Positions 1-19,246 are shown, numbered from the stretch's first letter. The stretch: 25,629 nt of DNA from a candidate division WOR-3 bacterium (GCA_037444665.1 JBBILZ010000038.1:1-25629), one strand, 5' to 3'. Program-made: numbers and translations. Notes: generated by a model from the sequence alone, not told the origin.

Positions 1-94
1 CAATATACCCGTCAACCACTGGTGCAACCTCACAAAACCGCACCTCAAGGGATTTGTTTGCCGAACATAATAAAAAGATTATTAAAAAATCCAT
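1..94 (-). CDS. 5' end (window-truncated) of a second copy of the DUF5916/CBM9-like outer-membrane protein
   Basis: nt 1-105 match 8840-8944 with one substitution (pos 11); same ATG (92-94) and AGGAGG RBS; reads MDFLIIFLLCSANKSLEVRFCEVAPVVDGYI. Confidence 0.85.
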   Translation of the reverse strand, partial: MDFLIIFLLCSANKSLEVRFCEVAPVVDGYI

Positions 95-439
95 AAACCT
101 CCTTTTCCTGTAAAATTACCATACTTGAAGCCAATAAGCGTCTGAATTCAATTTATATACACTCATTAATAATGTATTCCACAATTTTCATGAAAAAGTT
201 CCAATATATTTAATATTAATAAGACTCCCGGGATCATCTGCAACATTCAAAAATAAACACCAAACCTATTTTGTTATCAATGCTTAGGTATGATGATAAA
301 TAAGCCAATGCAAGATAAGTAAAGAATTTGGTAGGATGTAGAATCAGCAAGTAATGTAAGTAGGAGATTGTAAAGCGCTATCACAAGATCTGTTTTTTGC
401 CATAAAGAAATTTTTGTGTTTGCATTTTTATAATAATTA

Positions 440-1210
440 TTACAATTTTTTCGCAACGATAATCATTCTTTTTCCCCCAACGAAGGGTTTCCTATTATAG
501 TCACTAAACACATCAACAATTTTTAATCCGCTGGTCAACATTAATTCTCTCATTTCAGGATACAAAGTGTAGCGTAGTTGAAAAAAGTATGCATAATGGT
601 CTCCTGTTGCGTTTTTGTTATTAATTTGTTGATATATGTAGTTTACACACAATATTTGCGTATTGTAATTATATCGCAATTCCTCAATTTTCTTAAATGC
701 TATGCCTTTTTTTCTATCAATTATTTTGTATTGAGCATTTTTTTCCCTGAAGGCGAAAGAGGGAATAAAAGTTTCATTTATAAACACTCCATTTTTTTCT
801 AAATGCTGACGAACATTTTTCAACACTTGCAATTGTTCCTCCTTACTAATTATGTGCATAAAGGTGTTAAATACACATATAATTAACGAAAACCTTCTCC
901 TTAAGGTAAAATTCTGCATTTGAGCATGGACCAATTCGATATTTTTCTGAACAGCCTGTGGCCTTTGGGCAATTTTATCTTTCGCAATTTTCAGCATATG
1001 CAGAGAATTATCAATTCCAGTAACTTTTATACCTGCCTCGGCTATTGGAATTATAATTCTGCCTGTACCACAACCCAATTCTAACACTCTACCCTCTTGT
1101 TTTTTGGCATATGCGAGTATAAAAGGGATGTCATCTACTTTGTCGCTGAATTCTATGTCATAAAGATTGGCATAGAAATTATTTCCGTCGCGCATTAACA
1201 AATTATTCAT
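440..1210 (-). CDS. Class I SAM-dependent methyltransferase
   Basis: Motif I VLELGCGTGR, post-I TGIDNS, motif II FSLIICVFNTFMH; 256 aa; directly downstream of the radical SAM gene. Confidence 0.92.
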   Translation of the reverse strand: MNNLLMRDGNNFYANLYDIEFSDKVDDIPFILAYAKKQEGRVLELGCGTGRIIIPIAEAGIKVTGIDNSLHMLKIAKDKIAQRPQAVQKNIELVHAQMQNFTLRRRFSLIICVFNTFMHIISKEEQLQVLKNVRQHLEKNGVFINETFIPSFAFREKNAQYKIIDRKKGIAFKKIEELRYNYNTQILCVNYIYQQINNKNATGDHYAYFFQLRYTLYPEMRELMLTSGLKIVDVFSDYNRKPFVGGKRMIIVAKKL

Positions 1211-1272
1211 TTACACTGATTACGTAAAAGTTCATAATTAAGAAAGTTTCGCCGTAAAATCCGAAATTGATG

Positions 1273-2226
1273 TCACTGGTTCCGAAGCCTATTAAACCAC
1301 GATACAAATTTTTCATTAATAATTTTATCATTAAGTGCCCTTTTGACTAAATTATATAATGAATTGCATCCAGTGTAAAGACCCAAAGAGACTTTCATTG
1401 GAGTTAGTTGGACATTCCTTTTATAGTCCACACTAATGCCAAATGGAATTTTTTGATTATCAAATTTCGCATTTGCGGTATCTTGTACAAATTCACATTG
1501 GTCGTTTTCATGTAAGGCGAATACATAACTTTGGCCAAAGTAATTTCCCAAACATTCAAATTTTTTTTCTATAGTGCTTACTTCTGATAAAAACTCGCTT
1601 TGAGTAATAGATAGAAACTGTTCATTAATTTCGCCTCTGCCATCTTTATCCACTTTGCATATATTAAAAAACCGAGCCCCCATATCTTTGGCTAAAAGCG
1701 CTGTCTTTAAGGCATCTCCAATGTTATGTTTGTTTGACACCATCGTAATTGCAAATTGTATTTTTTTGAATTCCGATAAAATTTTTAGGCCAGATATTAT
1801 TCTATCGTAAGTACCTTGGCCCCTCACTCGATCATTTATTTTAGATTCAGAACCATCTAAGCTTACATATAAATTATGTCTAAATCCAACATCGTATAAC
1901 TTTTGTAATGTGGTTTTTGTTAATAAAGACCCATTCGTACTAATTGATGGTAAAATATTAAGGCTGCGTATATATTTTATTATATTGATAAAATTAGGAT
2001 GCGCAAATGGCTCACCACCGCCCACATATAAAGTCAATACCCCTAACTTTTTAATATCCTTAATTATGCCTACAATCTCAGGAAACGATAAAAATATATT
2101 GATTTCAGGGCTAGAGTTGGAATAACAATGAAGACACCTAAAATTGCAATAACCAGTAATTGCAATATGAGCTCCTCTAAAATATATTTTCTCTTTAATA
2201 GTTACGGTATTTCTGAATGATACCAA
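1273..2226 (-). CDS. Radical SAM protein without a Cys-rich SPASM domain; candidate peptide maturase
   Basis: CNFRCLHC (CxxxCxxC), GGGEPF, STNG and VSLDG motifs; TTG start with GGAG RBS at 2232-2235; C-terminus has only scattered Cys. Confidence 0.9.
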   Translation of the reverse strand: MVSFRNTVTIKEKIYFRGAHIAITGYCNFRCLHCYSNSSPEINIFLSFPEIVGIIKDIKKLGVLTLYVGGGEPFAHPNFINIIKYIRSLNILPSISTNGSLLTKTTLQKLYDVGFRHNLYVSLDGSESKINDRVRGQGTYDRIISGLKILSEFKKIQFAITMVSNKHNIGDALKTALLAKDMGARFFNICKVDKDGRGEINEQFLSITQSEFLSEVSTIEKKFECLGNYFGQSYVFALHENDQCEFVQDTANAKFDNQKIPFGISVDYKRNVQLTPMKVSLGLYTGCNSLYNLVKRALNDKIINEKFVSWFNRLRNQ

Positions 2227-2276
2227 TTTAACTCCAAGATTGGCGTCTTTCGCTTCGTATGGTAAAAAAAGAAGTG

Positions 2277-2311
2277 ATAGGGAGGGATTTTATATATTTC
2301 ACCCTCCCTAT
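2277..2311 (-). terminator. Terminator-like stem-loop between the peptide ORF and the radical SAM gene
   Basis: 10-bp inverted repeat ATAGGGAGGG (2277-2286) / CCCTCCCTAT (2302-2311); CACTTCTTTTTTT follows on the - strand. Confidence 0.7.
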
Positions 2312-2345
2312 TAAATCTCCTTTTAGCCTAACGTATCTCAAATTA

Positions 2346-2486
2346 CTACGGAAGTGGTACATCTCTTCCGCGTTCTGCTGGATCGATACTCCATACATTT
2401 TCATTATTGGTATCGATCTCATTGGGCAAGATAACAACGCCCAATCGTCCCAACAAACCTAATAAATGCTGGAGCAATATCTGCAT
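2346..2486 (-). CDS. 46-aa putative RiPP precursor MQILLQHLLGLLGRLGVVILPNEIDTNNENVWSIDPAERGRDVPLP (not in ORF track)
   Basis: Hand-translated; AGGAGGT RBS 4 nt before ATG; tandem stops TAG TAA; first ORF with a consensus RBS after the sigma54 promoter, followed by a hairpin then rSAM + methyltransferase. Confidence 0.75.
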   Translation of the reverse strand: MQILLQHLLGLLGRLGVVILPNEIDTNNENVWSIDPAERGRDVPLP

Positions 2487-2540
2487 TTTAACCTCCTATG
2501 TCTCCTATGTCTATATTGGTTATAACATTTTTTTATTTTT

Positions 2541-2680
2541 ACCCCGGCCCCCGAGGATTACGACCTTTTTGAAGGACCCTTTTCGCTGCTGATTTTTGTA
2601 GGCAGGTCTTTAATACAACCAGCATCTAAACCCACAAACCAATAACCATGCCTTTTAAACAGCAGGGGTCAGGGCCGGAA
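2541..2680 (-). ncRNA. Putative structured cis-regulatory leader RNA, copy 1
   Basis: 138/140 identical to 5951-6090; nested pairings CCGGCCC/GGGCCGG, GACCC/GGGUC, CUGCUG/CAGCAG, AGGCA/UGCCU; lies between the sigma54 promoter and the first gene. Confidence 0.55.
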
Positions 2681-2730
2681 CAGTCTGGTCTATCTGGTTT
2701 CTCTGGTTTTTTTAGTTTTTCTGGTTTCAT
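2681..2730. repeat. Degenerate 9-bp tandem repeat (e.g. TCTGGTTTC, TCTGGTCTA)
   Basis: Visible 9-nt periodicity; the homologous tract at 6091-6176 is 36 nt (4 units) longer. Confidence 0.75.
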
Positions 2731-2796
2731 AATTCCTCTCTGCCTTTCTTTGCCTTCAGTTACCCTTAATTGCCCTGTCATTTCTATCCCCAATTC

Positions 2797-2890
2797 TTTT
2801 TCGCCTTCTTTAGCCATATTTAGCCCCTTTTCGCCATATTTAGCCCCTTTTCGCCATATTGAGCCCTTTTGAGCCTTTTTTCGCCATCTA
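2797..2890. repeat. 10/20-bp tandem repeat (TAGCCCCTTTTCGCCATATT)
   Basis: 2821-2840 is identical to 2841-2860, flanked by degenerate 10-mers of the form nnGCCnnnTT. Confidence 0.85.
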
Positions 2891-2901
2891 CGGATTATAT
2901 A

Positions 2902-2918
2902 TGCAAAAACCGTGCCAG
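2902..2918 (-). promoter_or_regulatory. Sigma54 (-24/-12) promoter, cassette C
   Basis: CTGGCACGGTTTTTGCA matches the YTGGCACGrNNNTTGCW consensus; identical at 6384-6400 and 13120-13136. Confidence 0.9.
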
Positions 2919-3007
2919 GTGTAAAGTGCTGAAATTTCAAGACTTTGAATTTTTTAGCTGATGGCTAATATCAGTAACTCTAAAACAGTGTCGATTTTCT
3001 TCGGAAA

Positions 3008-3040
3008 TCAACTATTTTCTTCCGGGCAGAAAATAGTTGA
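3008..3040. other. 13-bp perfect inverted repeat (terminator of the 758-aa gene, or an operator of cassette C)
   Basis: TCAACTATTTTCT-N7-AGAAAATAGTTGA; only a weak U-tract. Confidence 0.5.
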
Positions 3041-3086
3041 AGTACTAATAACCATACCATGATTTTCAACTTTTCAAACTATATTA

Positions 3087-5363
3087 TTATCGTATTACTG
3101 ATCTTTTATAGAGCAATAAATTTAAAAAAACAATAACATATAAGCAAGCAGCAATTAAGAAATTGTATTTATAACCAAAATATTGAGCAACAATCATAGC
3201 AAATACGCTACCGAAAACTGACATAATACCATTTATTCCATAAGCAACACCTATATCAGCATTGTGCTGTTTAGCAAACATAGCAATTATCATTGGGAAA
3301 AACATCCCCATTGGAAAACCTATGATTATTGTTATGATACCAACAAAAATAATTTGTAATACTTCATTTATACTGCCTAAGTTTAACATTAAAAAATCAA
3401 TAAAAAGGAATAGTAGTAACCCTATAACCGGCATCAATATTAAAATAATTCTCTTCCTATAATGTATGCTAAATAAGCCACCCAGACTACAGGCAACCAA
3501 AAAACTGAATAACACAACACCAAAAGACAATAATGGCTTGCCTAAAAAATAAATAAATTTTTGAATTATTGAAACTTCCATTAACATAAAACCAGCACCC
3601 AGTAGATAGAAATTTGATATTAATAAATAGTTACCTTTTCTTTTAAGGGACAGCAACATTAAAATTGCCAAAATAGCGGTAATAATACATAAACTAATAA
3701 ATGACCAGTGCGGACTCCTGGAAAAATCAAAGAAGAACGGTTTTTCATCAATTACTGGTTTAATATTAATACCCTCATTCTTCTGCACCCTATTAATAAA
3801 ATACTCTAACTCGCCTAATGAAGCGAATTTTATATCCATTTTTTCATTTACAAAAGGCAGAAATTTAACAATAAGATTTCTTTTAAGAGATTCATTTTTT
3901 ATAGCCTCTGCCATAAGCGTATCTATTTCATTTTTGAAAAATAGTATCAAATATCTGTACGGTGAATCAGTTAGAAAATTCTGAATAATTGCCAGATGTT
4001 TATATGTATCAGACATATTTATACCTGACTCTTGCAAGGCAAAAGTCATTGTGGTGATTGATCGCAAAAGGAATGGATATGTCTCACAAAAAAGTGCAAC
4101 CACACCATTCGGTTTTAAATGATTATAATAATCTTTATACGCTTCTACGGTATGAAGATAACTCTCCGCATAGGGTATTCCAGTTTTTGTAGTTGTATTA
4201 GTCAATGAAAGGCTCAAAAAAATTAAATCATATTTTTGCTTATTTCTCCTTAAAAAATTTCTACCCTCTCCATCCGTAAATTTTAAGCGTGGATTATTTA
4301 ATATATTTCCATTAAAATCTTTGTATTCTTCCAAGATTTTTCTAATACTGGGATTTATCTCTACCGCATCAATTCTATTCATTCCAGCAATTTCACCAAG
4401 GATTATATCAAGCCCACCTCCAGGACCGATACTGAGAAAGTTTTCTTTTAATGTAAATTCAAATGGGAGATAATTAATTGTGTTTTTAAGCCATTTTAGA
4501 TTTTCAAAACCAGCACGAGCATTAAACATAATTGAAGGTGCACCACCATCCACAAAAATTGCCTTTGTTTCTAAGTTATTTCTGTAGATTATGATATCGG
4601 TCCTAAACACATAACTCCAATAGGTCTTTTCAATCCGGGCATTTTTGTTTTTTTGCAATAATTGAACCATTACTTTTCTACCTTGATTTGACGGAATCTT
4701 ATCAAAAGGAATGTCAATGAATTGCGTTTTAATATTAATGAGAAAAAGTATAAATAAAACAACAAATCCAATCGTATAGTTCGGTTTCCTCAATGCCAAT
4801 ATTATGGTAACCAAAACAATTAATTGGTATATCAGGATAACATTTATTGGATTAAATATATTGAGGAGAAATATACTGATCAATACACCAATGCCCGCAC
4901 CAAACAGGTCGGAAAAATACACTACACCAACATAATTAAAAAATAAACGGTAATAAATACTTATAATTATTCCAGCAAGAAGGAACTGCGGCAAGAAGAT
5001 GCATGCCATGATTACCGCGTGAGTTAGTAAGATTGGCAGTAATAGAGGTACAAATAACGGAATAAAAAAAGCAAGACCGTATAATATGCAAATTAATAGT
5101 ATATGTTTCTCCCCTAAATCAAATTTTGATGTTAGCAAACCGCCAAATCCATAACCCAGAAGTGCTATAGAAATAGATAAAAAGATATAATAGTTGCTGA
5201 AGATTAATGAAAAATACCTGGTAATGGTGATTTCAAAGCCTAGACTCGTAAGTGAAATAACAAATAATATTATGCTTGAGTTCAATAGACACATTATATT
5301 TGGTATAGTATTTTGGTTACTTATTTTTTCTTCCCAATACACTGTTATTATTATATCCAACAT
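3087..5363 (-). CDS. Polytopic membrane protein with a central spermidine-synthase-like (class I SAM-fold) domain
   Basis: N- and C-terminal hydrophobic helix blocks (Y-F-S-D-L-F-G-A-G-I-G; LGAGFMLMEV; GFPMGMFFP; YGINGIMSVFGS); central LSIGPGGGLD, DAVEINP, EGRNFL, YDLIFLS; true start may be the later Met (MCLLNSS). Confidence 0.8.
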   Translation of the reverse strand: MLDIIITVYWEEKISNQNTIPNIMCLLNSSIILFVISLTSLGFEITITRYFSLIFSNYYIFLSISIALLGYGFGGLLTSKFDLGEKHILLICILYGLAFFIPLFVPLLLPILLTHAVIMACIFLPQFLLAGIIISIYYRLFFNYVGVVYFSDLFGAGIGVLISIFLLNIFNPINVILIYQLIVLVTIILALRKPNYTIGFVVLFILFLINIKTQFIDIPFDKIPSNQGRKVMVQLLQKNKNARIEKTYWSYVFRTDIIIYRNNLETKAIFVDGGAPSIMFNARAGFENLKWLKNTINYLPFEFTLKENFLSIGPGGGLDIILGEIAGMNRIDAVEINPSIRKILEEYKDFNGNILNNPRLKFTDGEGRNFLRRNKQKYDLIFLSLSLTNTTTKTGIPYAESYLHTVEAYKDYYNHLKPNGVVALFCETYPFLLRSITTMTFALQESGINMSDTYKHLAIIQNFLTDSPYRYLILFFKNEIDTLMAEAIKNESLKRNLIVKFLPFVNEKMDIKFASLGELEYFINRVQKNEGINIKPVIDEKPFFFDFSRSPHWSFISLCIITAILAILMLLSLKRKGNYLLISNFYLLGAGFMLMEVSIIQKFIYFLGKPLLSFGVVLFSFLVACSLGGLFSIHYRKRIILILMPVIGLLLFLFIDFLMLNLGSINEVLQIIFVGIITIIIGFPMGMFFPMIIAMFAKQHNADIGVAYGINGIMSVFGSVFAMIVAQYFGYKYNFLIAACLYVIVFLNLLLYKRSVIR

Positions 5364-5390
5364 ATTGCAGAAATCAAGTAGTTGTTAGAA

Positions 5391-5437
5391 AAATAAAAAA
5401 GTACCGGGGAGTCTTTTTTTATATCTCCCCGGTACTT
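5391..5437 (-). terminator. Intrinsic terminator after the small secreted-protein gene
   Basis: 13-bp stem AAGTACCGGGGAG (5399-5411) / CTCCCCGGTACTT (5425-5437), followed by a U-rich tract on the - strand. Confidence 0.8.
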
Positions 5438-5467
5438 CACCTATTGAATGATTATATGAATTACCGA

Positions 5468-5883
5468 TTAATTGCCAGCATCATTTGGTGGAGGGGGCGT
5501 TGATCTTGTGCATTGAAAATTGTAAGACCCAAGATCCCAGTGAGGCTGCCAGGTATAAGATGGACTCCAATCTGAATATTTAGACACACCATTCTCTACA
5601 ATGTGTGCATAGGCTCTGAATGTTCCTGATTGAAGACCTGTCTCACAGTTTATCAGAAACCAACTATTTCCGCTTGTATATTCGTATGCTGTAGTATCTA
5701 CTGTTCCTGTGCTATACCTAACAACAATCTTTCGGAATTGATTACCCGCCCCTTGTCCCTGACTATTATAAACATATCCATTCAATCCACACTTGGTTCT
5801 GGGATCGTGGTGCTTGTTTGCAGCGTTTAAAAAAATGCAAAACCAATGCACAGCATTATGATTAGGGCAAAGTATTTCCTCAT
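5468..5883 (-). pseudogene. Small secreted protein (~138 aa) frameshifted in a T7 tract at 5829-5835
   Basis: AGGAGG RBS + ATG at 5883 gives MRKYFALIIMLCIGFAFF* (signal-peptide-like); one extra T joins it to LNA-ANKHHDPRTKCG... of the track ORF 5468-5923. Confidence 0.7.
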
Positions 5884-5950
5884 AAAAACCTCCTATGCTT
5901 TTGAATGAAGTATGATACTTCATTCATATCCTAATGCTTTTTATTATTGC

Positions 5951-6090
5951 ACCCCGGCCCCCGAGGATTACGACCTTTTTGAAGGACCCTTCTCGCTGCT
6001 GATTTTTGTAGGCAGGTCTTTAATACAACCAGCATCTAAACCCACAAACCAATAACCATGCCTTTTAAACAGCAGGGGTCAGGACCGGAA
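5951..6090 (-). ncRNA. Putative structured cis-regulatory leader RNA, copy 2
   Basis: Differs from copy 1 at two sites: one in a predicted bulge (5992) and one changing C-G to a U-G wobble on the - strand (6084). Confidence 0.55.
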
Positions 6091-6176
6091 CTGTTTGGTC
6101 TATCTGGTTTCTCTGGTCTATTTGGTCTTTTTGGTCTGTTTAGTCTTTCTGGTTTATTTAGTTTATCTGGTTTCAT
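6091..6176. repeat. Degenerate 9-bp tandem repeat, expanded copy
   Basis: Units such as TTTGGTCTA, TCTGGTTTC, TTTAGTCTT. Confidence 0.75.
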
Positions 6177-6205
6177 AGTTCATTTCTGCCTTTCTTTGCC
6201 TTCAA

Positions 6206-6300
6206 TTGCCATTTTTCCCTTCTTTTCCCTTCTTTACCCTTCTTTACCCCTTTTTACCCCTTTATACATAGCCTTCTTTAGCCATCTTTCGCCTATTTAG
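6206..6300. repeat. Degenerate 10-bp pyrimidine-rich tandem repeat (CCCTTCTTTW, GCCWTCTTT)
   Basis: Visible 10-nt periodicity; positionally equivalent to 2797-2890. Confidence 0.7.
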
Positions 6301-6383
6301 TTAATCTCGTTCCTTCATTTCGTTTTTTTATTTTTTAAACCAGCATCTCAACCCAAACCCAATAACTATCTGGCAAATATATA

Positions 6384-6400
6384 TGCAAAAACCGTGCCAG
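6384..6400 (-). promoter_or_regulatory. Sigma54 (-24/-12) promoter, cassette B
   Basis: CTGGCACGGTTTTTGCA, consensus match. Confidence 0.9.
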
Positions 6401-6438
6401 GTGCAAGGTGTTGAAATTTCAAGAGTTTTAATTTTTCT

Positions 6439-6830: not shown

Positions 6831-8933
6831 TTAAAAATATACCAGATACTTTGCCTTTATTGCCCCAACCTGATTCTGTAACCTAAGACTGCCATTCTGA
6901 TCTGTGCGATAGTCATTTAAAGCAATATATAACCACGATTTGGGCTTAAAATTATAAGAAAAGAGAAAACCAAAGCGATTGGTCAAAAATTCTGTAGCAC
7001 CAAAGTCTGTGCCCGGTGTAGTAAAGACAAATTCATTGAAGATGCCAAAGGTCATTTTTGGGGTAATCGTAAAATCTATCCTCGGCGTTGCCATGGGCCA
7101 GATCGCAATGATTGTATTTGTCGTATCCCATTCTACCCAGGAATAAGAATCAAAATTTATTGAAACACGGGGCATTATTGTCCAGTAAAACCCATGATAG
7201 GTATTTGCCTGATACCCAAGAAATCCCCGATAATAATTGTAAGAATAACTCACATTACCACCTGCCCAGATATTATAACTTGGACCATTACCCCAGATTG
7301 ATAGATTCACATTCCTTGTAAGATAACTGGTATCTGACTCATAATAAGGCCCTGCCTCAAGCTCCAGATTCCCACCCCAATTATTCCTGAAATTGGGATT
7401 GAAACATATAAATCCAATCCTTGACCAGTCTTTTCCACCTGGTATCCGACCTATCGCACCACCAAAACCAAGCCAGAGATTCCTCATAAAACCTTTTGGG
7501 TAGGTCTTATATGGACCAGTAAAGAATAAAAACTGCCTCACACCTGCCCAGGGCACATATCCAATATCCTTTACATCAAATGAATCTCCTATCCACTGCA
7601 CACTGCCTAAAGTAAGAAAATTCTTAATAAAACCCATATACCCTGAATTGAATGCCCACCCTTTTTTGTTGTCTCTGTCACTGAATGCAGTCTGCATAAT
7701 AAACTGATTCGGACCTGAACGATATGCACCATCAAGACCAATTGCATAATTATATGTATCACTATTTACTGCTGTGCCACTGAAAAGTATGCCTAAGTCT
7801 GAGGCAGATAAAACCTTATACTTTGCCCTCAATACACCAAAGCCACGAGCCGGCTCAATCAGGGTATCATTATGCTTTATCTTATCAGTATATGCACCAA
7901 AAAGACCATAATTCAATCTCTCGGATTTACTTGTTAATTTCAAACCCCCAATTATATCCACAACTTCACTATTGATTGATTTACCTATTCTCCGCGAATA
8001 GAAAATCCGCAATGGCTTAAAGAATCCTGTACCCTGACCAAAGTCTGACATCCGAAAGATATCTGCACCCTCAAGGAAGAATGGCCTTCGCTCACTCAGA
8101 TAGGTCTCATACTGGGTTAAATTCAATGTGAATGGGTCAGATTCAATCTGGGCAAAGTCAGGAAATGCAGTGGCATTGAGTGTGGTCTGGGAAGTAATAT
8201 CCCATTTAAGATTCATACTACCACTGAATTTGGTTTCAGTCTTAACACTATCTTTATCACGGCGCAAAAAACCCTCAGGATAGATTTCAAAATAATAACC
8301 AGTTGCCTGGGGATTGATATTCTTTAATGTGCCAAACTTTGAAACGAGCATCCCCTCTTTCTGTGAGACTTCGGTCCAGTAATCAGTCTCCTGATTTGAA
8401 GAGATATAACGCTTAAAGTTTATTCCCCATTCAGAAAGTCCCTTTTTATAACGAATGGACTTGAATGGTATTTTAATCTCAACTTCATAATGGTCATCAT
8501 AGACTTTTACTGCATAATCCCAGACCCCATCCCAGGAATCGTCCCTTGTCCTGCCGTCATCAAGAACTAAACCATCAGAATATATGCCACTTATATGAAC
8601 GGCAAATGAGTAGGCGGTTGTCTTAATACCAAATGGGTCAATATATAATACAACTGCATCATCATTTGAACTCATCTGATTTACTGGCTTTGAATTCAAT
8701 GTCCAGCATCTGAATGCAACAAATAGGTTATTTTTGTCCTGTAAAAGATAGACCACTGTATTATCGGTTGGTTTTTCTTTCTCATAAGGAAAGGTCTGGA
8801 TAAAATCATAGGTAGAATCTGCATTCTGCCAGATTTCTTCAATATACCCATCAACCACTGGTGCAACCTCACAAAACCGCACCTCAAGGGATTTGTTTGC
8901 CGAACATAATAAAAAGATTATTAAAAAATCCAT
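6831..8933 (-). CDS. DUF5916 / carbohydrate-binding family 9-like putative outer-membrane protein
   Basis: N-terminal hydrophobic signal; P-VVDG...W and SWDGVW...EIKIPFKSIRY (CBM9-like); PDFAQIESD, ERRPFFLEG, FYSRRIG motifs; C-terminal KAKYLVYF beta-barrel-type ending. Confidence 0.8.
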   Translation of the reverse strand: MDFLIIFLLCSANKSLEVRFCEVAPVVDGYIEEIWQNADSTYDFIQTFPYEKEKPTDNTVVYLLQDKNNLFVAFRCWTLNSKPVNQMSSNDDAVVLYIDPFGIKTTAYSFAVHISGIYSDGLVLDDGRTRDDSWDGVWDYAVKVYDDHYEVEIKIPFKSIRYKKGLSEWGINFKRYISSNQETDYWTEVSQKEGMLVSKFGTLKNINPQATGYYFEIYPEGFLRRDKDSVKTETKFSGSMNLKWDITSQTTLNATAFPDFAQIESDPFTLNLTQYETYLSERRPFFLEGADIFRMSDFGQGTGFFKPLRIFYSRRIGKSINSEVVDIIGGLKLTSKSERLNYGLFGAYTDKIKHNDTLIEPARGFGVLRAKYKVLSASDLGILFSGTAVNSDTYNYAIGLDGAYRSGPNQFIMQTAFSDRDNKKGWAFNSGYMGFIKNFLTLGSVQWIGDSFDVKDIGYVPWAGVRQFLFFTGPYKTYPKGFMRNLWLGFGGAIGRIPGGKDWSRIGFICFNPNFRNNWGGNLELEAGPYYESDTSYLTRNVNLSIWGNGPSYNIWAGGNVSYSYNYYRGFLGYQANTYHGFYWTIMPRVSINFDSYSWVEWDTTNTIIAIWPMATPRIDFTITPKMTFGIFNEFVFTTPGTDFGATEFLTNRFGFLFSYNFKPKSWLYIALNDYRTDQNGSLRLQNQVGAIKAKYLVYF

Positions 8934-9085
8934 AAACCTCCTTTGATTGTGAAATACCGAATATCAATTAAACTCCTATTTCTAAACATTATTAAATTTC
9001 TGTCTCGCCAGCATCCCAACCACAACCCCAAACCATCTTTTATTTGTAATACGCAATTTATACAAAAAAGTTTCAATTTATTTTA

Positions 9086-9763
9086 TCATTTAACAGAAAA
9101 CCTACCGTCGTCTGGAACTTTTAAAAACAGACACCCTGCTCCCTTTTCCTTAGTCTCACGGTCAAACAGAGATAAATCAATACGCAAATATTCTTCCCTA
9201 TATTCTTTTCTTAACGCACACTGGATAAGATAACTAATAATTTGCTTACCCTTACCTGCAGATTCATTTACTGAACTGATTTCTAAAATTTCACTTCGCA
9301 CACCGTTGATTTTAATCTCAATATCGTCAGGTAATATTTTTGGTGCAATATCAACCAGCTTCATCTTTTTCACAACATCAACACCACCTTGGTTCTGAAC
9401 TCTTTTAAGACTCATCGGTCTGAAGTAAATCATTATTGACCGAATGGGCGTCTGTGGAATAAATGCATTCATTGCATAAATCTCAAGTCCATCAATGCGA
9501 GGATTAATTTTTAAATCTTTATATGCCGGAACATTCCAAACCCAGTATTCAAGATTTTTGCTCTTATAATCCTTACATGCCATCAGGGCTAAATATGTTC
9601 CGGGTTTAACTAGAATCTTATACCTGCCACTGGCATCAGAATGCGTTTTATAAAGTGTCTTAAAATCGCAACCCATAATCTCAACTTCTGCATCCACAAT
9701 AACTTTGCCTCTAAAATCTGTCACCCTGCCGGAAATTTTAGCAAGTTTTCTCTTCATCACCAT
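9086..9763 (-). CDS. Carboxypeptidase-regulatory-like (transthyretin-like fold) domain protein
   Basis: ISGRVTD...DAEVEI...SDASGRYKILVKPGTY pattern; no signal peptide; start may be 9763, 9760 or 9757. Confidence 0.65.
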   Translation of the reverse strand: MVMKRKLAKISGRVTDFRGKVIVDAEVEIMGCDFKTLYKTHSDASGRYKILVKPGTYLALMACKDYKSKNLEYWVWNVPAYKDLKINPRIDGLEIYAMNAFIPQTPIRSIMIYFRPMSLKRVQNQGGVDVVKKMKLVDIAPKILPDDIEIKINGVRSEILEISSVNESAGKGKQIISYLIQCALRKEYREEYLRIDLSLFDRETKEKGAGCLFLKVPDDGRFSVK

Positions 9764-9864: not shown

Positions 9865-11538
9865 CTATGTTGTCTTAGAGTTACAAATTTCTCCATTCTT
9901 GATTTTGTAGACATAATCTGCCATTCTTAGTAGTGAATGCCGATGTGTAGTAATTAATACCGTTCTATTTTCCGCAAGTTTCTTCAACTCCTTCAAAATC
10001 TTATCTTCTGTAGACCTATCTAAGGCTGAAGTTGGTTCATCCATAATTATAATTGGTGGTGATTTAAGAAAGATACGGGCAATGGCAATTCTCTGGCGCT
10101 CACCCCCTGAAAGAGAAAATCCACGCTCTCCAACCACTGTTTGAAAACCGCTGGGCAGTGCCACAATAAATTCATAAAGACCTGCCTTCCTTGTCGCCTC
10201 TTTAATTTCTTCTTCGGTAGCATCTAAGCGGGCAATTTGAATATTCTCATAAATAGAGCGATTAAAGATATAAGTATCTTGCTCCATCAGCCCTATCATC
10301 CTCAACCATTCTTCTAGTTTAACATCATTTAAGTCAACATTATTTATCCTTATTACGCCTGACTCAGGTTTAAGAAATCCCAAAAGTAAGTTAACAAGTG
10401 TAGTCTTTCCAGAACCAGAATATCCCATTAATGCGACTATCTTTGACCTTGGAATTTTTAAATGAATATTATTTAGGATGGGTTTGTGATTATCATAGCT
10501 GAATTTGACTCTTTCAAAGCAAATATATTCAATATTTGTTGGTAAAGGCGAGTATATTTTTTTAATTGGGGATGGTTTGTATTGGCGGAATTCATAAAGC
10601 CTTTCAATTGAAGCGATGGCAGGTTGTAGACCACTTACCAGTACGGATAAACCTCTTAGTGGCGTAGTTGCAGTCATAAAAAGGAGTATAAAACTCATAA
10701 ATCCGCCAACGGACAAACTATTTCGCATAACTTCGTTAATTCCTATCCATATAAGAACTCCCAAAATTGGAAAATATAACAGTGTAGGAATACTAGAACC
10801 AAAGATTATATTCCGCCAAGAAAAATGCCATTGGACCTTTAAGTATAGATAAAGCTGGGAGGCAAAGACTTTTTTTTCGTTCTCCTCTAAACCAAAGGCG
10901 TGAATTATATTTATCCCCTGGAGAGTCTCTTGAATTCTTGCTCCAAGTTGAGCATAATATTCTTGGATCTTTTTAGCCCAAGGGCGTAGCCGGGGCGCGA
11001 TGAAATATAAGTTTAATATAAATAGCGGATATATAGTAAGTCCGATTAGCGCAAGTTTGGAGTTAAGAGAGAGCAAGGACCAAACAAGGAAGATTGCAGA
11101 TAATACCTGACCCAAAGCCATTAAATTTTCTTTACTTATCAATTCCATAGACCCCTCTACATCCTTTAATATCCGCTGGAGTATGTATCCAGATTGTTTA
11201 GAAAAAATAACTGCCGTAGGTATTCCTAAGGAATGATTATAGAAATATTCCCGGAGAGTTTGCTCGATGCGCAGTTTTAATCTTAAAAACAAAATTCCTT
11301 TGAGAATATTAAAACAAAATCCAAAAGTAATTACCACCAGATAAATAATCCCCCATCGCATAAGAACCATTGGTTCTTTGGTATAGACGGCTGCATCAAC
11401 CAATGGTTTAATAAATAAGAAATAGCACATTGTAATAATCTCGGCAGCAATAAAAAGAATGGAAACGATAATAAAGTTTAGCCAAAGTTTATTGAAAAAG
11501 GTTGAGAAATACCAGCAAAGCAGTTTCTTTGCCTTCAT
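9865..11538 (-). CDS. ABC exporter, fused permease + ATPase, without a C39 peptidase domain
   Basis: Hydrophobic N-terminal half; Walker A GYSGSGKT, signature LSGGERQR, Walker B IIIMDEP, H-loop TTHR. Confidence 0.95.
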   Translation of the reverse strand: MKAKKLLCWYFSTFFNKLWLNFIIVSILFIAAEIITMCYFLFIKPLVDAAVYTKEPMVLMRWGIIYLVVITFGFCFNILKGILFLRLKLRIEQTLREYFYNHSLGIPTAVIFSKQSGYILQRILKDVEGSMELISKENLMALGQVLSAIFLVWSLLSLNSKLALIGLTIYPLFILNLYFIAPRLRPWAKKIQEYYAQLGARIQETLQGINIIHAFGLEENEKKVFASQLYLYLKVQWHFSWRNIIFGSSIPTLLYFPILGVLIWIGINEVMRNSLSVGGFMSFILLFMTATTPLRGLSVLVSGLQPAIASIERLYEFRQYKPSPIKKIYSPLPTNIEYICFERVKFSYDNHKPILNNIHLKIPRSKIVALMGYSGSGKTTLVNLLLGFLKPESGVIRINNVDLNDVKLEEWLRMIGLMEQDTYIFNRSIYENIQIARLDATEEEIKEATRKAGLYEFIVALPSGFQTVVGERGFSLSGGERQRIAIARIFLKSPPIIIMDEPTSALDRSTEDKILKELKKLAENRTVLITTHRHSLLRMADYVYKIKNGEICNSKTT

Positions 11539-11551
11539 ATTAAAAAATCAA

Positions 11552-12856
11552 TCAGTTTTCTTTCCTTTTTTCTGCATGCAGAAGTAGTAATTGTTTGAAT
11601 ATATACCGCCAGTAAATACAACCCGACTCGCGATTCTCAGGTTCAGTCTCTCTGCGCCGGGGGCATCCTCCTAAGCAGATAGGAACGATGGGACAACACA
11701 AACACCCTTCAGTCGCCCGCCAATTAGAAAAGATCCATTCTATGGTGCGATTTTTCTTCAAATCTATTCCAGTTTCAATGTTACCCACAGCCTTATCTTC
11801 ATCACCAACATCTTCCCAACACGCATATATTTCTCCGCATGGTCCTATCACCCAGCTAGAAAATTTTTTCCAAATACAACTATTAAAAGAAGGATAAAGG
11901 GCTGGTAATGGTAAATTCAATCGCCTCATCTCCTTTAATATCTTTAAATAATATTGACCAAAATTTGATGTCGTGAATAATGTATCTCCACGGGATTTAC
12001 ATATAGAACCTGCTTTAGAAATGACCTGGCCGAAATTAATCGTCAACCGATCCCAATTCTTTATTGAAGCAGCTAAGTCTTTTAAAAAAGGGAGCATATA
12101 TTTTTCATTCTCTTTATCAATATTTATTCTTAATTTTACCCTGATATCGATTTTATTAGCAAGGATATCAAAAATATTTCGCATTATAATATCATAGGTG
12201 CCAGTTCCATCCTTAAAAGGTCGTCGGAAGTTGTGAATTTCAGATGGGCCATCAATCGTTACTTGTGCATCTGTAATTTTACATAACGAAAAGAAATCTC
12301 TGTCGCATTCTGATATTAACGTTCCATTTGTAACCAACCCAGCGGTATATTTAATATCCCGTTTACTACATTCAGTTTGAATGGTTTGTGATATTTTAGC
12401 AATTGTATCCATCTCTAAAAGGGGTTCGCCTCCATACCAAGTAATGTGCAAAGAGGCTGGATGAAATTCATCTATCTTTTGTAGAATAAAAATAATCACC
12501 TTTTTTGTGATAGAAGCATCCATACCGACATTTTTGTTTGTAGTCGTTTCATAGCAGTAAATGCACTGCAGGTTGCAAAAAAGAGTGGGGATTATTGTGA
12601 AACTGATATTCACTGATGAATATTTCAGTGAATAATAGAGGTGGTTAACATAAGATATTTCATTAAATGCATTCGGCACCCAAAAAAGTCCTTTTACCAA
12701 CTCCTGAATCACTTCAGATGATATGGAAGTTTCTTTTCCTTCTAAAAAGGCAACTATTTTACCATCTATCTTACACAAGGCATTCGTTAACGGATTATAT
12801 GCTAAATAGTTATCTTTACCGAAAGGAATTATTAAATTAAATTTATTTTTTCGCAT
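11552..12856 (-). CDS. Radical SAM/SPASM peptide maturase
   Basis: CNLQCIYC, WYGGEPL, TNG, TIDG; SPASM C...GPCGEIYAC...CLCCPIVPICLGGC...C; ~80-aa N-terminal extension (possible RRE); start placed at MRKNKF (12856) rather than TTG 12883. Confidence 0.92.
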   Translation of the reverse strand: MRKNKFNLIIPFGKDNYLAYNPLTNALCKIDGKIVAFLEGKETSISSEVIQELVKGLFWVPNAFNEISYVNHLYYSLKYSSVNISFTIIPTLFCNLQCIYCYETTTNKNVGMDASITKKVIIFILQKIDEFHPASLHITWYGGEPLLEMDTIAKISQTIQTECSKRDIKYTAGLVTNGTLISECDRDFFSLCKITDAQVTIDGPSEIHNFRRPFKDGTGTYDIIMRNIFDILANKIDIRVKLRINIDKENEKYMLPFLKDLAASIKNWDRLTINFGQVISKAGSICKSRGDTLFTTSNFGQYYLKILKEMRRLNLPLPALYPSFNSCIWKKFSSWVIGPCGEIYACWEDVGDEDKAVGNIETGIDLKKNRTIEWIFSNWRATEGCLCCPIVPICLGGCPRRRETEPENRESGCIYWRYIFKQLLLLHAEKRKEN

Positions 12857-12904
12857 AATGCACTCTTTCTCCCTTTTATGCAAAAATTTTAATCTTTGTG
12901 AGTT

Positions 12905-12947
12905 AAAAAGGTGCCCATGTAAAGAGCATTACTTAACACGGGCACCT
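12905..12947 (-). terminator. Terminator-like hairpin between the Cys-rich peptide and the maturase
   Basis: - strand AGGUGCCCGUGU...ACAUGGGCACCU (one G-U pair) followed by a U-run. Confidence 0.75.
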
Positions 12948-12972
12948 ACCCAATATAAAAATCATCTTCCGC

Positions 12973-13092
12973 CTATTCTACTTCGTATCCAGATCCACCG
13001 AGGCAAAAACAAATAGGCGAACAAAACTCACTACATTTAACACCACATGGCCCGCCTATGGGCGATGATGGTTTTTCAATCCATGAAAGCAT
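12973..13092 (-). CDS. 39-aa Cys-rich RiPP precursor MLSWIEKPSSPIGGPCGVKCSEFCSPICFCLGGSGYEVE (not in ORF track)
   Basis: Hand-translated; AGGAGGT RBS 4 nt before ATG; ATG ~17 nt after the predicted sigma54 start site; CxxxCxxxCxxxCxC; directly upstream of rSAM/SPASM + ABC exporter. Confidence 0.85.
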   Translation of the reverse strand: MLSWIEKPSSPIGGPCGVKCSEFCSPICFCLGGSGYEVE

Positions 13093-13119
13093 TTATACCT
13101 CCTTTCGGAAATTTATATA

Positions 13120-13136
13120 TGCAAAAACCGTGCCAG
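13120..13136 (-). promoter_or_regulatory. Sigma54 (-24/-12) promoter, cassette A
   Basis: CTGGCACGGTTTTTGCA, consensus match; a sigma54 activator gene lies just upstream. Confidence 0.92.
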
Positions 13137-13174
13137 GTGCAAAGTGTTGAAATTTCAAGACTTTTAATTTTTCT

Positions 13175-13293
13175 TGTCTCATCCAGTGAGACAGGTTTTT
13201 TGAAAAATTTCAGCAAAAATCGTGTAAATGCAGGCCGGTTCTGCATTTGCGGGTGTCTCATCTGGTGAGACACCTGTCTCATAAAATGAGACA
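13175..13293. promoter_or_regulatory. Three perfect palindromes TGTCTCA-N5-TGAGACA, putative enhancer-binding-protein sites
   Basis: At 13175-13193, 13254-13272 and 13275-13293; TGT...ACA architecture typical of Fis-type EBP sites. Confidence 0.8.
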
Positions 13294-13473
13294 AACATGA
13301 AAATTTCATTAAATTTTAAGTTACACACGGTAAAACTGTTGAAATTTCATAACTTTTTTCAAAATTCTACGGCAAATTCAGTAAATTTCTAAGGGAAATG
13401 GTTGAAAATCTCTGACCGGGATATCCTTAAGAAAAATTTTAACATTCTATTTTTTTTCTTTTTGTCAGTTTTA

Positions 13474-13556: not shown

Positions 13557-15350
13557 TTAGTCACCTACTTTTTTGTTGACTATCTTGAGGTACCGATAGA
13601 GCTGGGCACGGGATATTTTTAGACTTGCACAGGTCTTTTTAATATCTTTATTGTTTGAAATAAAACATTCGTAAATTAACTTTGCTTTATATTGCTTAAC
13701 CTTTTCTTCAATTGACAATGGCTCAATAGATTTTAATCCCAAATCCTCCACACCAATCTCAGACTTTTTACAGAATAGGTATGCCTGCCTTAATATGCCT
13801 TCAAGTTCTCTAACATTTCCCGGAAAGTCATAATTTGTTAGCGCAGCTATTGCCTCCTCAGAGATGCCTTCAACAAAATTCTTAGACTGACTTTTTAACT
13901 TTAAAAATATGTGCCATACCAGTTCAGGAATCTCCTCCTTTCGTTCACGCAGGGGTGGAATCCGAATTGAAGGTGAATAGATACGATAGTATAGGTCTTC
14001 ACGGAATTTTTTATCCCGGACCATCTGCTTTAAGTCTTTATTCGTCGCAAAGATAAATCGCACATCAACTTTTTTTGCTTCATTTGAACCGAGTCTACAT
14101 ACTACCCTGTCCTCAAGCACTCGTAATAGTTTACCCTGAACATCTAAGGGCAGATCACCAACTTCATCTAAGAAGAGCGTCCCCTTATCAGCAAATACTA
14201 TCTTACCCTCACGGTCTGCGCGGGCATCAGTGAATGCACCTTTTTTATAACCGAATAACTCAGCCTCAAAGAGATTCTCAGGAATTGTATTACAATTTAC
14301 TGCCACAAATCTACCAGCTGCCCTTTTACTTTCATTATGAATCGCTGAGGCAAGCAATTCCTTGCCTGTTCCACTCTCACCAATAATCAAGATATTTGAT
14401 TCCTGATGTGCCAGACGTCTTGCCTCTCTTTTTATTGCTTTTAGTCCAATAATATCCTCAAATGTAAATTTTGCCAGTGTACTATTTATCTTCTCACTTT
14501 TTTCAAGTTCCTCCTGCACGAGTTCAAATAAGAATAAATAATTTTTATTATAAGATTTACGCACCACAAGAAAACTCTTTTCCAGTATTTGTGAGTATAT
14601 CACCCGATTTATAATCTCTTGCCTCTGCAATAATTTTTCATCAAAATAACCAGTTATATTGTTCCCTTTTTCTATTTTTAATAATTTCCCTGCACAGGGA
14701 TTGAGATAGCATATCACACCATCCAGGTCTGTCACGACTATGGCAGTATGTAAGGTATTACAAACTGAAATCACAAAATTCCCCTCTAATACATTCTCGT
14801 ATTCTTTTTCGATCAGCATTGCTAAGGTCTGAACCAGGGCAAATGTATGAGGATGACCAATTTTATGAGGATGCACTATTACAATCGTTCCTAATAATGT
14901 ATGATTATTAAAGATCGGCGCACTAAAACACGCACCTTTCTGGAAAATTTTTAGATAATATTCCTTACCGGCAACAAAGACTGGTTTCTTATGTTTGATA
15001 CTGAGGGCTACCGCATTTGTCCCTGCATCCTCTTCACGCAAGGAAACACCTTCAGCTAAATCCATACGAATGCGCTGCCGCAATATTTTATCTGGACCAA
15101 TGACTTTTATAACATAACCTTCACTATCAGTCAAAACTATTATTGAATCACACATTCTAAATATATCACTGCAAATTTTCATATAAGGGAATGCTGAGGT
15201 TATGAAAATTTCATTATCTTTTTGACATTTGATGAGCGCAGAACTGGATAGTCTCCTGGTAAGACGACGCCTATCAGGAGCAAGTCCCATTCTCTGACAA
15301 CGGTCTTTTGATTCAATTATCCATTTTTTCCGCTCATCATTTTTCTTCAT
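13557..15350 (-). CDS. Sigma54-dependent transcriptional activator (AcoR-like: GAF - PAS-like - AAA+ - Fis HTH)
   Basis: I-ES--RC-R-GL and GTNAVAL (AcoR-type N-terminus); GESGTGKE, ELFGYKKGAFTDA, TLFLDEVG, FREDLYYR, FPGNVREL; HTH LKISRAQLYRYLK; AGGAG RBS. Confidence 0.93.
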   Translation of the reverse strand: MKKNDERKKWIIESKDRCQRMGLAPDRRRLTRRLSSSALIKCQKDNEIFITSAFPYMKICSDIFRMCDSIIVLTDSEGYVIKVIGPDKILRQRIRMDLAEGVSLREEDAGTNAVALSIKHKKPVFVAGKEYYLKIFQKGACFSAPIFNNHTLLGTIVIVHPHKIGHPHTFALVQTLAMLIEKEYENVLEGNFVISVCNTLHTAIVVTDLDGVICYLNPCAGKLLKIEKGNNITGYFDEKLLQRQEIINRVIYSQILEKSFLVVRKSYNKNYLFLFELVQEELEKSEKINSTLAKFTFEDIIGLKAIKREARRLAHQESNILIIGESGTGKELLASAIHNESKRAAGRFVAVNCNTIPENLFEAELFGYKKGAFTDARADREGKIVFADKGTLFLDEVGDLPLDVQGKLLRVLEDRVVCRLGSNEAKKVDVRFIFATNKDLKQMVRDKKFREDLYYRIYSPSIRIPPLRERKEEIPELVWHIFLKLKSQSKNFVEGISEEAIAALTNYDFPGNVRELEGILRQAYLFCKKSEIGVEDLGLKSIEPLSIEEKVKQYKAKLIYECFISNNKDIKKTCASLKISRAQLYRYLKIVNKKVGD

Positions 15351-15794: not shown

Positions 15795-16358
15795 TTATAC
15801 AATCCCCAATGTTTTTGCGATAGTAATTTTTAATTCTTCTTTCATCAACTCAGCAATGACATTGAGCGAACCAAGATAGGTCGTCTTCTCTTTTTTTAAT
15901 ATAATACCACCCAGCATATTGTCATCAACCTTTATTTGAAAATTATAACCTTCCTGCGTGCAAAACTTTTCCAGCTGGCTACGGTATTTTTTAAAATCAT
16001 CTGTAGAGAGATAGAGTTCGCCCTGACTCACACCACTATTTTTTATTAATCCAGTAAGAAATTTGAAATAGTTTTTGTGCCCTGGTAATTTTTTTATTGC
16101 GGTTTGTAGCACATCATCAATATGCTTTTGCGTCTCAGCAGTCAGTTTTTTATTATAAAATAATCGCTCCTGGGCAATTGCCCGCATTATCTCTGCGTTT
16201 TTTCTTTTTTCAATTTCATCACCCAGTTTTTTTTCTGCTGCACCAATCTTTTCTTCGTATTCTTTTTTTATCTTTACTATTTCTGCTTCATATTTCTGGG
16301 CAATTGCCTCAGCCTCTTTTTTTGCCTCGTCAAGAATCTTTTCAATGACGCTCTGCAT
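15795..16358 (-). CDS. atpE: A/V-type ATP synthase subunit E
   Basis: Charged helical N-terminus (IEKILDEAKKEAEAI); C-terminal MLGGIIL motif; operon context. Confidence 0.85.
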   Translation of the reverse strand: MQSVIEKILDEAKKEAEAIAQKYEAEIVKIKKEYEEKIGAAEKKLGDEIEKRKNAEIMRAIAQERLFYNKKLTAETQKHIDDVLQTAIKKLPGHKNYFKFLTGLIKNSGVSQGELYLSTDDFKKYRSQLEKFCTQEGYNFQIKVDDNMLGGIILKKEKTTYLGSLNVIAELMKEELKITIAKTLGIV

Positions 16359-16359
16359 A

Positions 16360-16851
<492 letters not shown>

Positions 16852-19241: not shown

Positions 19242-19246
19242 TTTAC

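Follow-up and report, generated by a model that had tools for sequence, protein, structure and literature searches.

Does a small open reading frame (ORF) without a single cysteine codon encode the substrate of the radical S-adenosylmethionine (SAM) enzyme whose gene follows it? The question is raised by a contig of a candidate division WOR-3 bacterium (GCA_037444665.1, JBBILZ010000038.1:1-25629), of which the whole stretch of 25,629 nucleotides (nt) was analyzed and is called the window hereafter. Its minus strand carries a 46-codon ORF, a hairpin, a radical SAM gene and a methyltransferase gene, all of them where the preliminary description of this DNA had placed them. Radical SAM-modified peptides are already known; what is remarkable here is the combination of a stripped-down enzyme with a Cys-free candidate substrate. 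Radical SAM peptide maturases have been mined almost entirely via their SPASM or recognition domains and via Cys-rich precursors; a working enzyme that lacks both domains and takes a Cys-free peptide, if real, would fall outside those search rules and would reveal what chemistry a bare barrel can perform on a peptide when no auxiliary path for electrons exists. The evidence presented below makes it reasonably probable that the locus is a strain-specific modification cassette for a peptide of the RiPP type (synthesized on the ribosome and modified post-translationally).

The candidate precursor ORF (2346-2486, minus strand; ATG start) is preceded at a distance of 5 nt by the Shine-Dalgarno (SD) sequence GGAGG (2492-2496), and an in-frame TAG lies 12 nt 5' of the ATG. 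Its predicted product lacks Cys as well as Lys and has one Trp, at position 32; hydropathy averages 1.53 over residues 1-21 and -1.14 over residues 22-46. Both composition and hydropathy agree with the earlier picture of a Cys-free peptide with a hydrophobic N-terminal half and a polar C-terminal half that holds the only Trp; the C-terminal half is also acidic. The radical SAM gene (1273-2226, minus strand; 317 amino acids, aa) follows after 119 nt, and the methyltransferase gene (440-1210, minus strand; 256 aa) lies 62 nt further 3'. The two enzyme genes have a G+C content of 0.32-0.33 and the small ORF one of 0.43; the genome is at 0.377, and the contig is of low G+C content. The intergenic stretch between the ORF and the radical SAM gene (predicted fold, -35.3 kcal/mol) comprises a hairpin with a distal T run (2264-2312, minus strand), i.e. 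a 10-bp G+C-rich stem at about 2312-2277 and a T7 run 9 nt behind the stem; the hairpin was not called in a terminator scan because of this distance of the T run. The ORF is co-oriented with the enzyme gene and adjoins it behind one predicted promoter and leader, as in RiPP cassettes.

This arrangement recurs in the lineage. A structured leader RNA element, which precedes the ORF and is described further below, was examined in 21 distinct copies, 18 of which have at least 1.2 kb of downstream sequence. A radical SAM gene is found within about 500 nt after the leader in ten of these 18 copies, and a short SD-led ORF lies in between in nine of the ten; in one sister-species cassette (L047) the radical SAM gene directly follows the leader. 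The other eight copies precede genes for secreted or unknown proteins of 126-210 aa, or short ORFs without an enzyme. A detailed comparison covered ten cassettes, of which two are located in the window and eight come from sister species: the order SD-led short ORF, stem of at least 8 bp, radical SAM gene was found in all ten, and the strict promoter motif lies upstream in five of the eight from sister species. The precursor-hairpin-radical SAM order noticed earlier at this locus is hence shared with nine other cassettes. The studied cassette is an outlier among them on three counts, with no Cys in the peptide (1-9 Cys in the nine others), with the iron-sulfur cluster motif starting at residue 27 of the enzyme (first cluster Cys at residue 80-305 in the others, a long N-terminal extension that would leave room for a recognition domain) and without conserved late Cys (8-10 late Cys in the enzymes of six of the nine). 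Downstream of a sister-species gene with 45% identity to residues 421-742 of the 758-aa protein encoded upstream of the studied cassette lie, in this order, a leader, the gene of a Cys-rich peptide and a radical SAM/SPASM gene; a slot of the same kind is filled there by a different payload. Among contigs from a second study, five short ones span 375-2193 with 1-2 differences each, and none of those listed covers the small ORF; a 3,075-nt contig over the neighboring gene (2894-5972) shows 92 differences and stops at the promoter, which gives a hint, and a hint only, that the cassette is strain-variable, as the depths of contigs do not serve to rank genes.

The radical SAM gene starts with TTG, 6 nt behind a GGAG; its frame is open for 21 further codons upstream but contains no start codon there. 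The predicted enzyme matches Radical_SAM (PF04055) over residues 23-175 with 80.8 bits (cut-off 29.5), which is the only Pfam domain seen, and its cluster cysteines are C27, C31 and C34 (CxxxCxxC). The best NCBIfam model is MftC (TIGR03962; 94.1 bits over the N-terminal half, about residues 20-200), at a score far below the cut-off of 265 for membership of that family, followed by ScmE (86.6 bits), WgkB (81.2 bits), StsB, AlbA and PqqE, all over the first 175-200 residues and far under their cut-offs. The SPASM models (PF13186, TIGR04085) gave no match on the enzyme at E<=0.01, and in an alignment with MftC-like relatives all SPASM cysteines are missing from the enzyme and its clade, either deleted or replaced; about 25 alignment columns that hold the first SPASM Cys of the MftC-like relatives are deleted.

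The clade comprises three relatives among 5.8 billion protein clusters, known as protein records only: one of 331 aa (47% identity over 96% of the length), one of 324 aa (35%) and a 184-aa fragment (56%); the proteins of the next tier are MftC-like, belong to the SPASM type and align over about 60% of the length. Clade enzymes start 13-26 residues before the cluster motif, and the N-termini of both full-length relatives are as short as that of the studied enzyme, so the missing N-terminal domain is a trait of the clade and not the result of a mis-called start. Two claims of the preliminary description, that the enzyme begins almost at its CxxxCxxC and leaves no room for a RiPP recognition element, and that it lacks the usual SPASM Cys, are thereby extended to the relatives. 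The motifs CxxxCxxC, GGGEP, STNG and SLDG are invariant in the clade, as are 81 alignment columns in total, many of them C-terminal; this conservation of the SAM-binding motifs and of the C-terminal part points to a stripped-down form that is maintained rather than decaying. None of the non-cluster cysteines (190, 225, 244 and 287) is invariant; C190 and C225 are common to one of the two full-length relatives and C244 to neither. No clade member was found in one genome each of 185,579 species, where a scan with the clade alignment gave only SPASM-type enzymes (24-37% identity), no orthologue in the genomes of 40 relatives, and of 272 genomes of the phylum only this one was found to contain the cassette. 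Within the literature collection searched, no paper on such a SPASM-less enzyme without auxiliary cluster was found.

The AlphaFold (AF2) model of the enzyme has a predicted local distance difference test (pLDDT) value of 89.7 and a predicted template modeling score (pTM) of 0.88, and is confident save for residues 1-6 and the loop 244-255. Structural comparison with VIA-align ranked SkfB first (6efn; Z 24.0, 261 residues aligned at a root-mean-square deviation of 2.9, model residues 16-313), followed by SuiB (5v1s/5v1t; Z 22.3, 274 residues, model residues 6-317), viperins (6q2p, 9dgw; Z 21.7) and then BlsE, MoaA, PqqE, anSME and EpeE (Z 18). The alignments with SkfB and SuiB extend through the C-terminal domain, and the language-model features of residues 195-317 are nearest to SPASM clusters (0.95 and 0.94), which serves as a lead only; the C-terminus is read as a cluster-less remnant of a twitch/SPASM domain. 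Foldseek ranked a viperin first (TMq 0.65), and a sequence search against solved structures placed viperin-like enzymes first (63.8 bits), then BlsE, SkfB and MoaA. The modeled structure alone does not separate a peptide from a small molecule as the substrate.

For the complex of peptide and enzyme, three prediction runs gave interface scores (ipSAE) of 0.01, 0.61 and 0.70 (median 0.61), which passes a mark that is reached by 116 of 157 solved complexes and by two of 215 mismatched pairs; controls with two unrelated small proteins and with one unrelated enzyme gave 0.00-0.01. The runs agree in at least 5% of contacts, with pLDDT values of 31-55 for the partner. Peptide residues 21-24, 26-27 and 29-43 are in predicted contact, with the lowest error at residues 31-34, and the sites touched on the enzyme are the ends of barrel strands (92-96, 116-120, 157-161 and 186-190) and the loop 243-249, C190 and C244 being among the residues that touch the peptide. 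The model thus lends support to a placement of peptide residues 21-43, centered on Trp32, in the barrel of the enzyme. No PqqD/MftB-type protein was found in the genome (0 matches to PF05402), which fits direct binding of the core but is equally expected for an enzyme that does not act on a peptide.

The methyltransferase, which the preliminary description had counted as part of the cassette, is confirmed as a class I SAM-dependent enzyme by its match to Methyltransf_25 (70.3 bits; cut-off 27). Its best NCBIfam model is the RiPP methyltransferase of the daptides (NF041820; 108.4 bits over 160 residues), which stays below the cut-off of 175. The nearest solved structures are 9sot (102 bits, class I), CcbJ, YunM and the cypemycin N-terminal methyltransferase, and PCZA361.24 and sugar N,N-dimethyltransferases (DesVI/TylM1 type) are also near; by these relationships the enzyme resembles the amine N-methylating group. 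Six methyltransferase clusters at 61-67% identity are found on contigs of up to 9.6 kb; in a scan of metagenomes only four loci at 24-30% identity were recovered. A paralogue (33-40% identity) occurs in 20 of the 40 relatives and an orthologue in none of them, and no orthologue was found in 271 other genomes of the phylum at E<=1e-60. As far as can be seen, the pairing of this enzyme with this methyltransferase is unique to this genome. Neighborhoods with radical SAM and methyltransferase genes in two relatives (G007:C41 and G014:C6) were set aside as a different cassette: the enzyme there is a short SPASM protein, and the methyltransferase gene, 3 kb away, is broken and lies among flavodoxin and ferredoxin genes.

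The strongest alternative is that enzyme and methyltransferase act on a small molecule or nucleotide, by viperin-, BlsE- or MoaA-like chemistry followed by N-methylation, and that the ORF encodes an unrelated small membrane or regulatory peptide. Its appeal lies in the viperin-led rankings of Foldseek and of the solved-structure search, in the size of the enzyme and its single cluster, which are typical of such enzymes and, like the absence of SPASM cysteines, shared with viperins, and in the presence of sugar and amino-acid N-methyltransferases (CcbJ, DesVI/TylM1 type) among the solved relatives of the methyltransferase; further, the trio of enzyme, methyltransferase and peptide is conserved nowhere, and the N-terminal half of the peptide is hydrophobic enough for a membrane helix. 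The viperin model itself (NF038283), however, reaches only 50.2 bits on the enzyme (cut-off 180), all models that score higher are maturases of the SPASM branch, and identity to the viperins is 14-19%. The C-terminal part matches the twitch/SPASM part of SkfB and SuiB structurally and SPASM clusters by its features; the operon has the layout of nine peptide cassettes instead of a defense or nucleotide context and contains no other gene for a small-molecule pathway; and the complex prediction passes where the two small-protein controls fail. Weighing both sides, we regard action on a small molecule as rather unlikely.

According to a second alternative, the 46-codon ORF is not translated, the stretch from leader to enzyme gene is an untranslated RNA, and the operon consists of enzyme and methyltransferase only. 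This would account for the lack of homologues: a word search over the 5.8 billion protein clusters returned only the peptide itself, a phmmer search against 1.84 billion representatives gave only three long proteins (591-1181 aa; E 2e-5 to 7e-4), which are taken as chance or low-complexity matches, and look-alikes found by language model scored at noise level (0.81-0.82). It would also suit the eight of 18 leader copies that precede non-peptide genes, and the sister-species locus L047. The signals within the ORF argue otherwise. The motif GGAGG-N4-9-ATG occurs at 529 sites in the 2.54-Mb genome, and 75% of these sites, against 22% of random ATGs, open frames of at least 46 codons. A log-odds score of codon usage, for which 1,117 long ORFs served as the training set, assigns the small ORF 0.192 per codon, a value at the 33rd percentile of the in-frame windows of real genes (0.231 +/- 0.087); spurious wrong-frame, stop-free ATG-ORFs of 40-60 codons (n=2,096) score -0.014 +/- 0.109, and 2.5% of them reach the value of the small ORF, whose five other frames lie between -0.69 and 0.03. 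The hairpin comes just after the end of the ORF, which is also the case in the nine other cassettes. With its SD, its codon usage and its position in the precursor slot of a recurrent layout, the small ORF looks like a real gene, and an untranslated stretch appears improbable. The ORF had been described as unannotated; it is present as described, but a protein collection already lists it as a called gene on the same contig. Its N-terminus resembles by eye that of a 37-codon ORF elsewhere in this genome (L003:1320-1433), a likeness that was rejected when BLASTP gave no alignment at E<=100.

That the cassette is a decaying, non-working remnant of a normal Cys-peptide/SPASM cassette, as the full enzyme architecture of all sister cassettes and the confinement of this one to a single genome of the phylum might suggest, is very improbable in view of three independent relatives (35-56% identity) that have the same stripped-down form with all SAM-binding motifs and a conserved C-terminal part, of intact frames, and of a model that is confident throughout except for one loop.

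Among known systems, the MftC/SPASM branch provides the best-scoring families, the same barrel and likewise a gene adjoining a small peptide gene; it differs in that the scores are far below every cut-off, in the SPASM cysteines that are all missing here, and in its MftB/PqqD-type partner. MftC acts on the C-terminal Val-Tyr of its peptide, and the peptide studied here does not end in Val-Tyr. SkfB and SuiB, the closest structural matches with the C-terminal domain included, have their own N-terminal peptide-recognition domain (the matches start at chain residue 91-106) as well as auxiliary clusters of their own; the partners that come from their substrates are Cys or Lys/Trp, and their identity to the enzyme is 15-17%. 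The epimerases EpeE/YydG (8ai1) and PoyD are likewise small enzymes that act at Cys-independent positions, and their redox-neutral abstraction of the C-alpha hydrogen would suit an enzyme without auxiliary clusters; EpeE also has no separate recognition domain, and YydG shows marginal sequence similarity to the enzyme (25.6 bits over 74 residues). EpeE is described as carrying one auxiliary [4Fe-4S] cluster in an extended twitch domain and using Cys223 on a flexible loop as hydrogen donor (PMC13012085), and PoyD as using a strictly conserved Cys372 (PMC8326336), unlike the studied clade with neither an invariant non-cluster Cys nor an auxiliary-cluster Cys. The YydG/EpeE type cited in the preliminary description is not an exact precedent: EpeE retains an auxiliary cluster in its twitch-type domain and a catalytic Cys (PMC13012085). 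For the methyltransferase, the amine N-methyltransferases (daptide NF041820, CypM 7wzg, CcbJ, PCZA361.24) provide the best model and the nearest named solved relatives. The daptide methyltransferase finishes a terminus of the peptide (10.1101/2023.03.08.531785); the oxidative decarboxylase, the aminotransferase and the fusion to a RiPP recognition element of that system are absent from the cassette, and no decarboxylase or aminotransferase genes are found as neighbors in the window.

The 860 nt 5' of the small ORF are not idle and hold a predicted promoter and a long leader. A sigma-54 type promoter, TGGCAC-N5-TTGCA (2902-2917, minus strand), matches the motif exactly and is one of 20 strict matches in the genome; the surrounding 60-nt promoter block is repeated at 13113-13172 (95% identity) and at 6378-6436 (92%), each time ahead of another unit. 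A gene for a GAF/AAA+ sigma-54 activator is predicted at 13557-15350 (Sigma54_activat, 219.9 bits), and by its motif elements together with this activator gene the site qualifies as a predicted sigma-54 promoter. A look-up of RNA data sets for positions 400-3000 returned none. TGTCTCA...TGAGACA palindromes are located at 13170-13300 (minus strand), 5' of the promoter at 13135 and 3' of the activator gene, and are likely the binding site of the activator. The palindrome words were also observed 5' of the promoter at 6399 (on a loose contig end of the second study), and none was seen 5' of the promoter at 2917.

Behind the promoter, the leader is GA-rich over 2685-2900 (minus strand) and contains two repeat arrays, with period 20 at 2809-2870 and period 9 at 2684-2728; further copies of the GA-rich segment occur in this genome and in sister species. 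Lys/Pro-rich upstream ORFs at 2626-2730 (minus strand; 34 codons) and at 6037-6177 (minus strand) are built on the 9-nt repeat, of which there are five to eight copies, and extend into the 5' strand of the leader helix. Such an ORF may encode a translated leader peptide, or the repeat may be a protein-binding RNA, or both. In 19 leader copies the 3' part of the ORF shows no variation at any codon position, which indicates a constraint at the nucleotide level. The 34-codon ORF was considered as the true precursor and rejected, as the leader also precedes non-peptide genes, the tail is read in two frames and the 3' part is nucleotide-invariant. Pieces of the 9-nt repeat were observed 52 times in one genome of a neighboring genus (G022).

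The structured leader RNA element proper (2532-2684, minus strand) is predicted to consist of a long-range outer helix, a CCC/GGG helix and a variable inner stem. It is repeated at 5942-6094 (minus strand), on another contig of the genome (L003:1490-1643) and in sister species, and an alignment of 19 copies shows invariant flanks and a variable middle. RNAalifold predicted for this alignment a long-range helix of 12 bp, the CCC/GGG helix and the variable stem. Pairing was retained in 96.1% of cells, compared with 92.3% in shuffles and 40-55% in slid controls; 20 cells show double changes, compared with 6.4 in shuffles, a number reached by none of 500 shuffles, and all four doubly changed pairs fall in the variable stem. 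Depending on the copy, one of two different frames runs through the tail of the element; because of this, and because the 5' strand is fixed at all codon positions, the element is taken as an RNA and not as protein-coding. A covariance model (R1) scored 159.5 bits for this copy and gave 43 matches in 17 of 61 genomes searched; the element occurs in ten of 11 genomes of the genus, with one to seven copies each, and in a few neighboring genera, and no match was found among these 61 genomes in other families of the class. Rfam gave no match at gathering score over the window and none at E<=1 over 2200-3100, and no description of such a leader RNA or of a lineage-specific sigma-54/leader system was found within the literature collection searched. 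The element is a candidate for a new cis-regulatory RNA, and the system of sigma-54 promoter and leader in which the cassette is embedded appears to be lineage-specific; the shared promoter and folded leader also provide a handle for finding peptide cassettes of this uncultured lineage. In three sister-species loci (L033, L037 and L040) a second type of leader was observed between sigma-54 promoter and peptide gene in place of the 2532-2684 type, with a conserved hairpin-rich segment that ends in GGGGGTGA just before the start codon.

For the reading favored here, a strain-specific RiPP-type cassette, the following course is conceivable. A transcript with a long folded leader would be driven by the sigma-54 promoter, for which the GAF-domain protein with its gene 10 kb upstream is the probable activator, and the hairpin probably keeps the mRNA of the peptide in excess over that of the enzyme. 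The enzyme would have descended from the MftC/SPASM branch, after loss of the N-terminal domain that binds peptides and of every cysteine for auxiliary clusters; it would bind the polar C-terminal half of the peptide in its barrel and abstract a hydrogen atom near Trp32. The methyltransferase would then methylate an amino group, most likely that of the new N-terminus after removal of the leader; the N-terminus is the obvious candidate, since the peptide has no Lys. Auxiliary clusters of SPASM enzymes have been proposed to carry electrons or to hold the substrate (PMC13012085, PMC8326336). Since the enzyme has no such cluster that could accept an electron, the reaction is most likely redox-neutral: epimerization near residues 31-34 is our first choice and a carbon-carbon cross-link to Trp32 the second, each with low absolute confidence. 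Thioether chemistry, which had been excluded from the beginning, stays excluded because the peptide is Cys-free. The new RiPP class that the preliminary description put forward as a candidate remains a hypothesis, though a supported one. The more far-reaching proposal, which we put forward tentatively as a possibility, is of a new kind of ribosomal peptide in which a bare enzyme alters a Cys-free core at or next to Trp32 and an N-methyltransferase caps it, the cassette being an interchangeable payload of a genus-wide sigma-54/leader-RNA system that jointly controls many peptide cassettes.

Several observations weigh against a peptide-modifying cassette of this kind. The peptide has no homologue in the two large collections searched (5.8 billion clusters, 1.84 billion representatives), so that its co-conservation with the enzyme cannot be shown, and only three relatives of the enzyme are known. 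None of the six close methyltransferase relatives lies on a contig that equals in length the contig of a clade enzyme, and the 9.2-kb contig of one enzyme relative has no listed relative of the methyltransferase; enzyme and methyltransferase are hence not a conserved unit. The three-member clade has no invariant non-cluster Cys to serve as hydrogen-atom donor, as would be expected of an epimerase. The top sequence matches are viperin-like, i.e. Cys-poor, SPASM-less small-molecule enzymes of the same size, and these tie with the peptide maturases in structure within about 2 Z. One of the three complex predictions failed (0.01), the fold of the peptide itself is uncertain, and the pass may partly reflect likeness to solved complexes of peptides with radical SAM enzymes (SuiB, EpeE, anSME). 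Finally, the sequenced part of the cassette contains no protease or exporter genes.

The last point had been made for the whole cassette, and stands for its sequenced part; it is limited by the end of the contig, which lies 345 nt past the methyltransferase gene, and an ATP-binding cassette (ABC) exporter is encoded in a neighboring sigma-54 operon. Positions 1-105 (minus strand) carry an SD and the initial 31 codons of a second gene of the DUF5916/CBM9 type, which is cut by the contig end; over these 105 nt, identity to 8840-8944, where a 700-aa DUF5916/CBM9 gene (6831-8933) starts, is 99% and begins at the SD site. The assembly probably broke at this repeat. In the sister species with locus L040 a DUF5916/CBM9 homologue directly follows the radical SAM gene, and, as the contig ends in a copy of such a gene, the cassette may run on beyond it.

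The neighboring operon (9865-13172, minus strand) is a plain RiPP operon behind an identical sigma-54 promoter (13120-13135), with a Cys-rich 39-codon peptide gene (12973-13092, minus strand) that is followed by a hairpin, a radical SAM/SPASM maturase (11552-12883, minus strand; Clo7bot-type, 238.7 bits) and the ABC exporter (9865-11538, minus strand). A CarboxypepD_reg gene (9086-9763, minus strand), the DUF5916/CBM9 gene and a gene for a 117-aa protein follow. A third unit of promoter and leader (5468-6436, minus strand) has as its payload a 151-aa protein with five Cys and no Pfam or NCBIfam match; the leader family thus also drives genes outside peptide cassettes (eight of the 18 copies mentioned above). 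The 758-aa protein encoded directly upstream of the studied promoter (3087-5363, minus strand) is a predicted polytopic membrane protein with a central spermidine-synthase-like domain, its matches being weak and below cut-offs. Another leader-driven cassette was observed in the same genome (L003:1-1643, on contig C54 of G000): a 37-codon ORF with one Cys and a Gly-rich end precedes the gene of a radical SAM enzyme that is at least 387 aa long and has the cluster near residue 54 and only a few late Cys. The remainder of the window is taken up by a V/A-type ATPase operon (15795-24248; subunits K, I, D, B, A, F and C by Pfam) and by an IS481-like transposase gene (24377-25627) that is cut by the other end of the contig.

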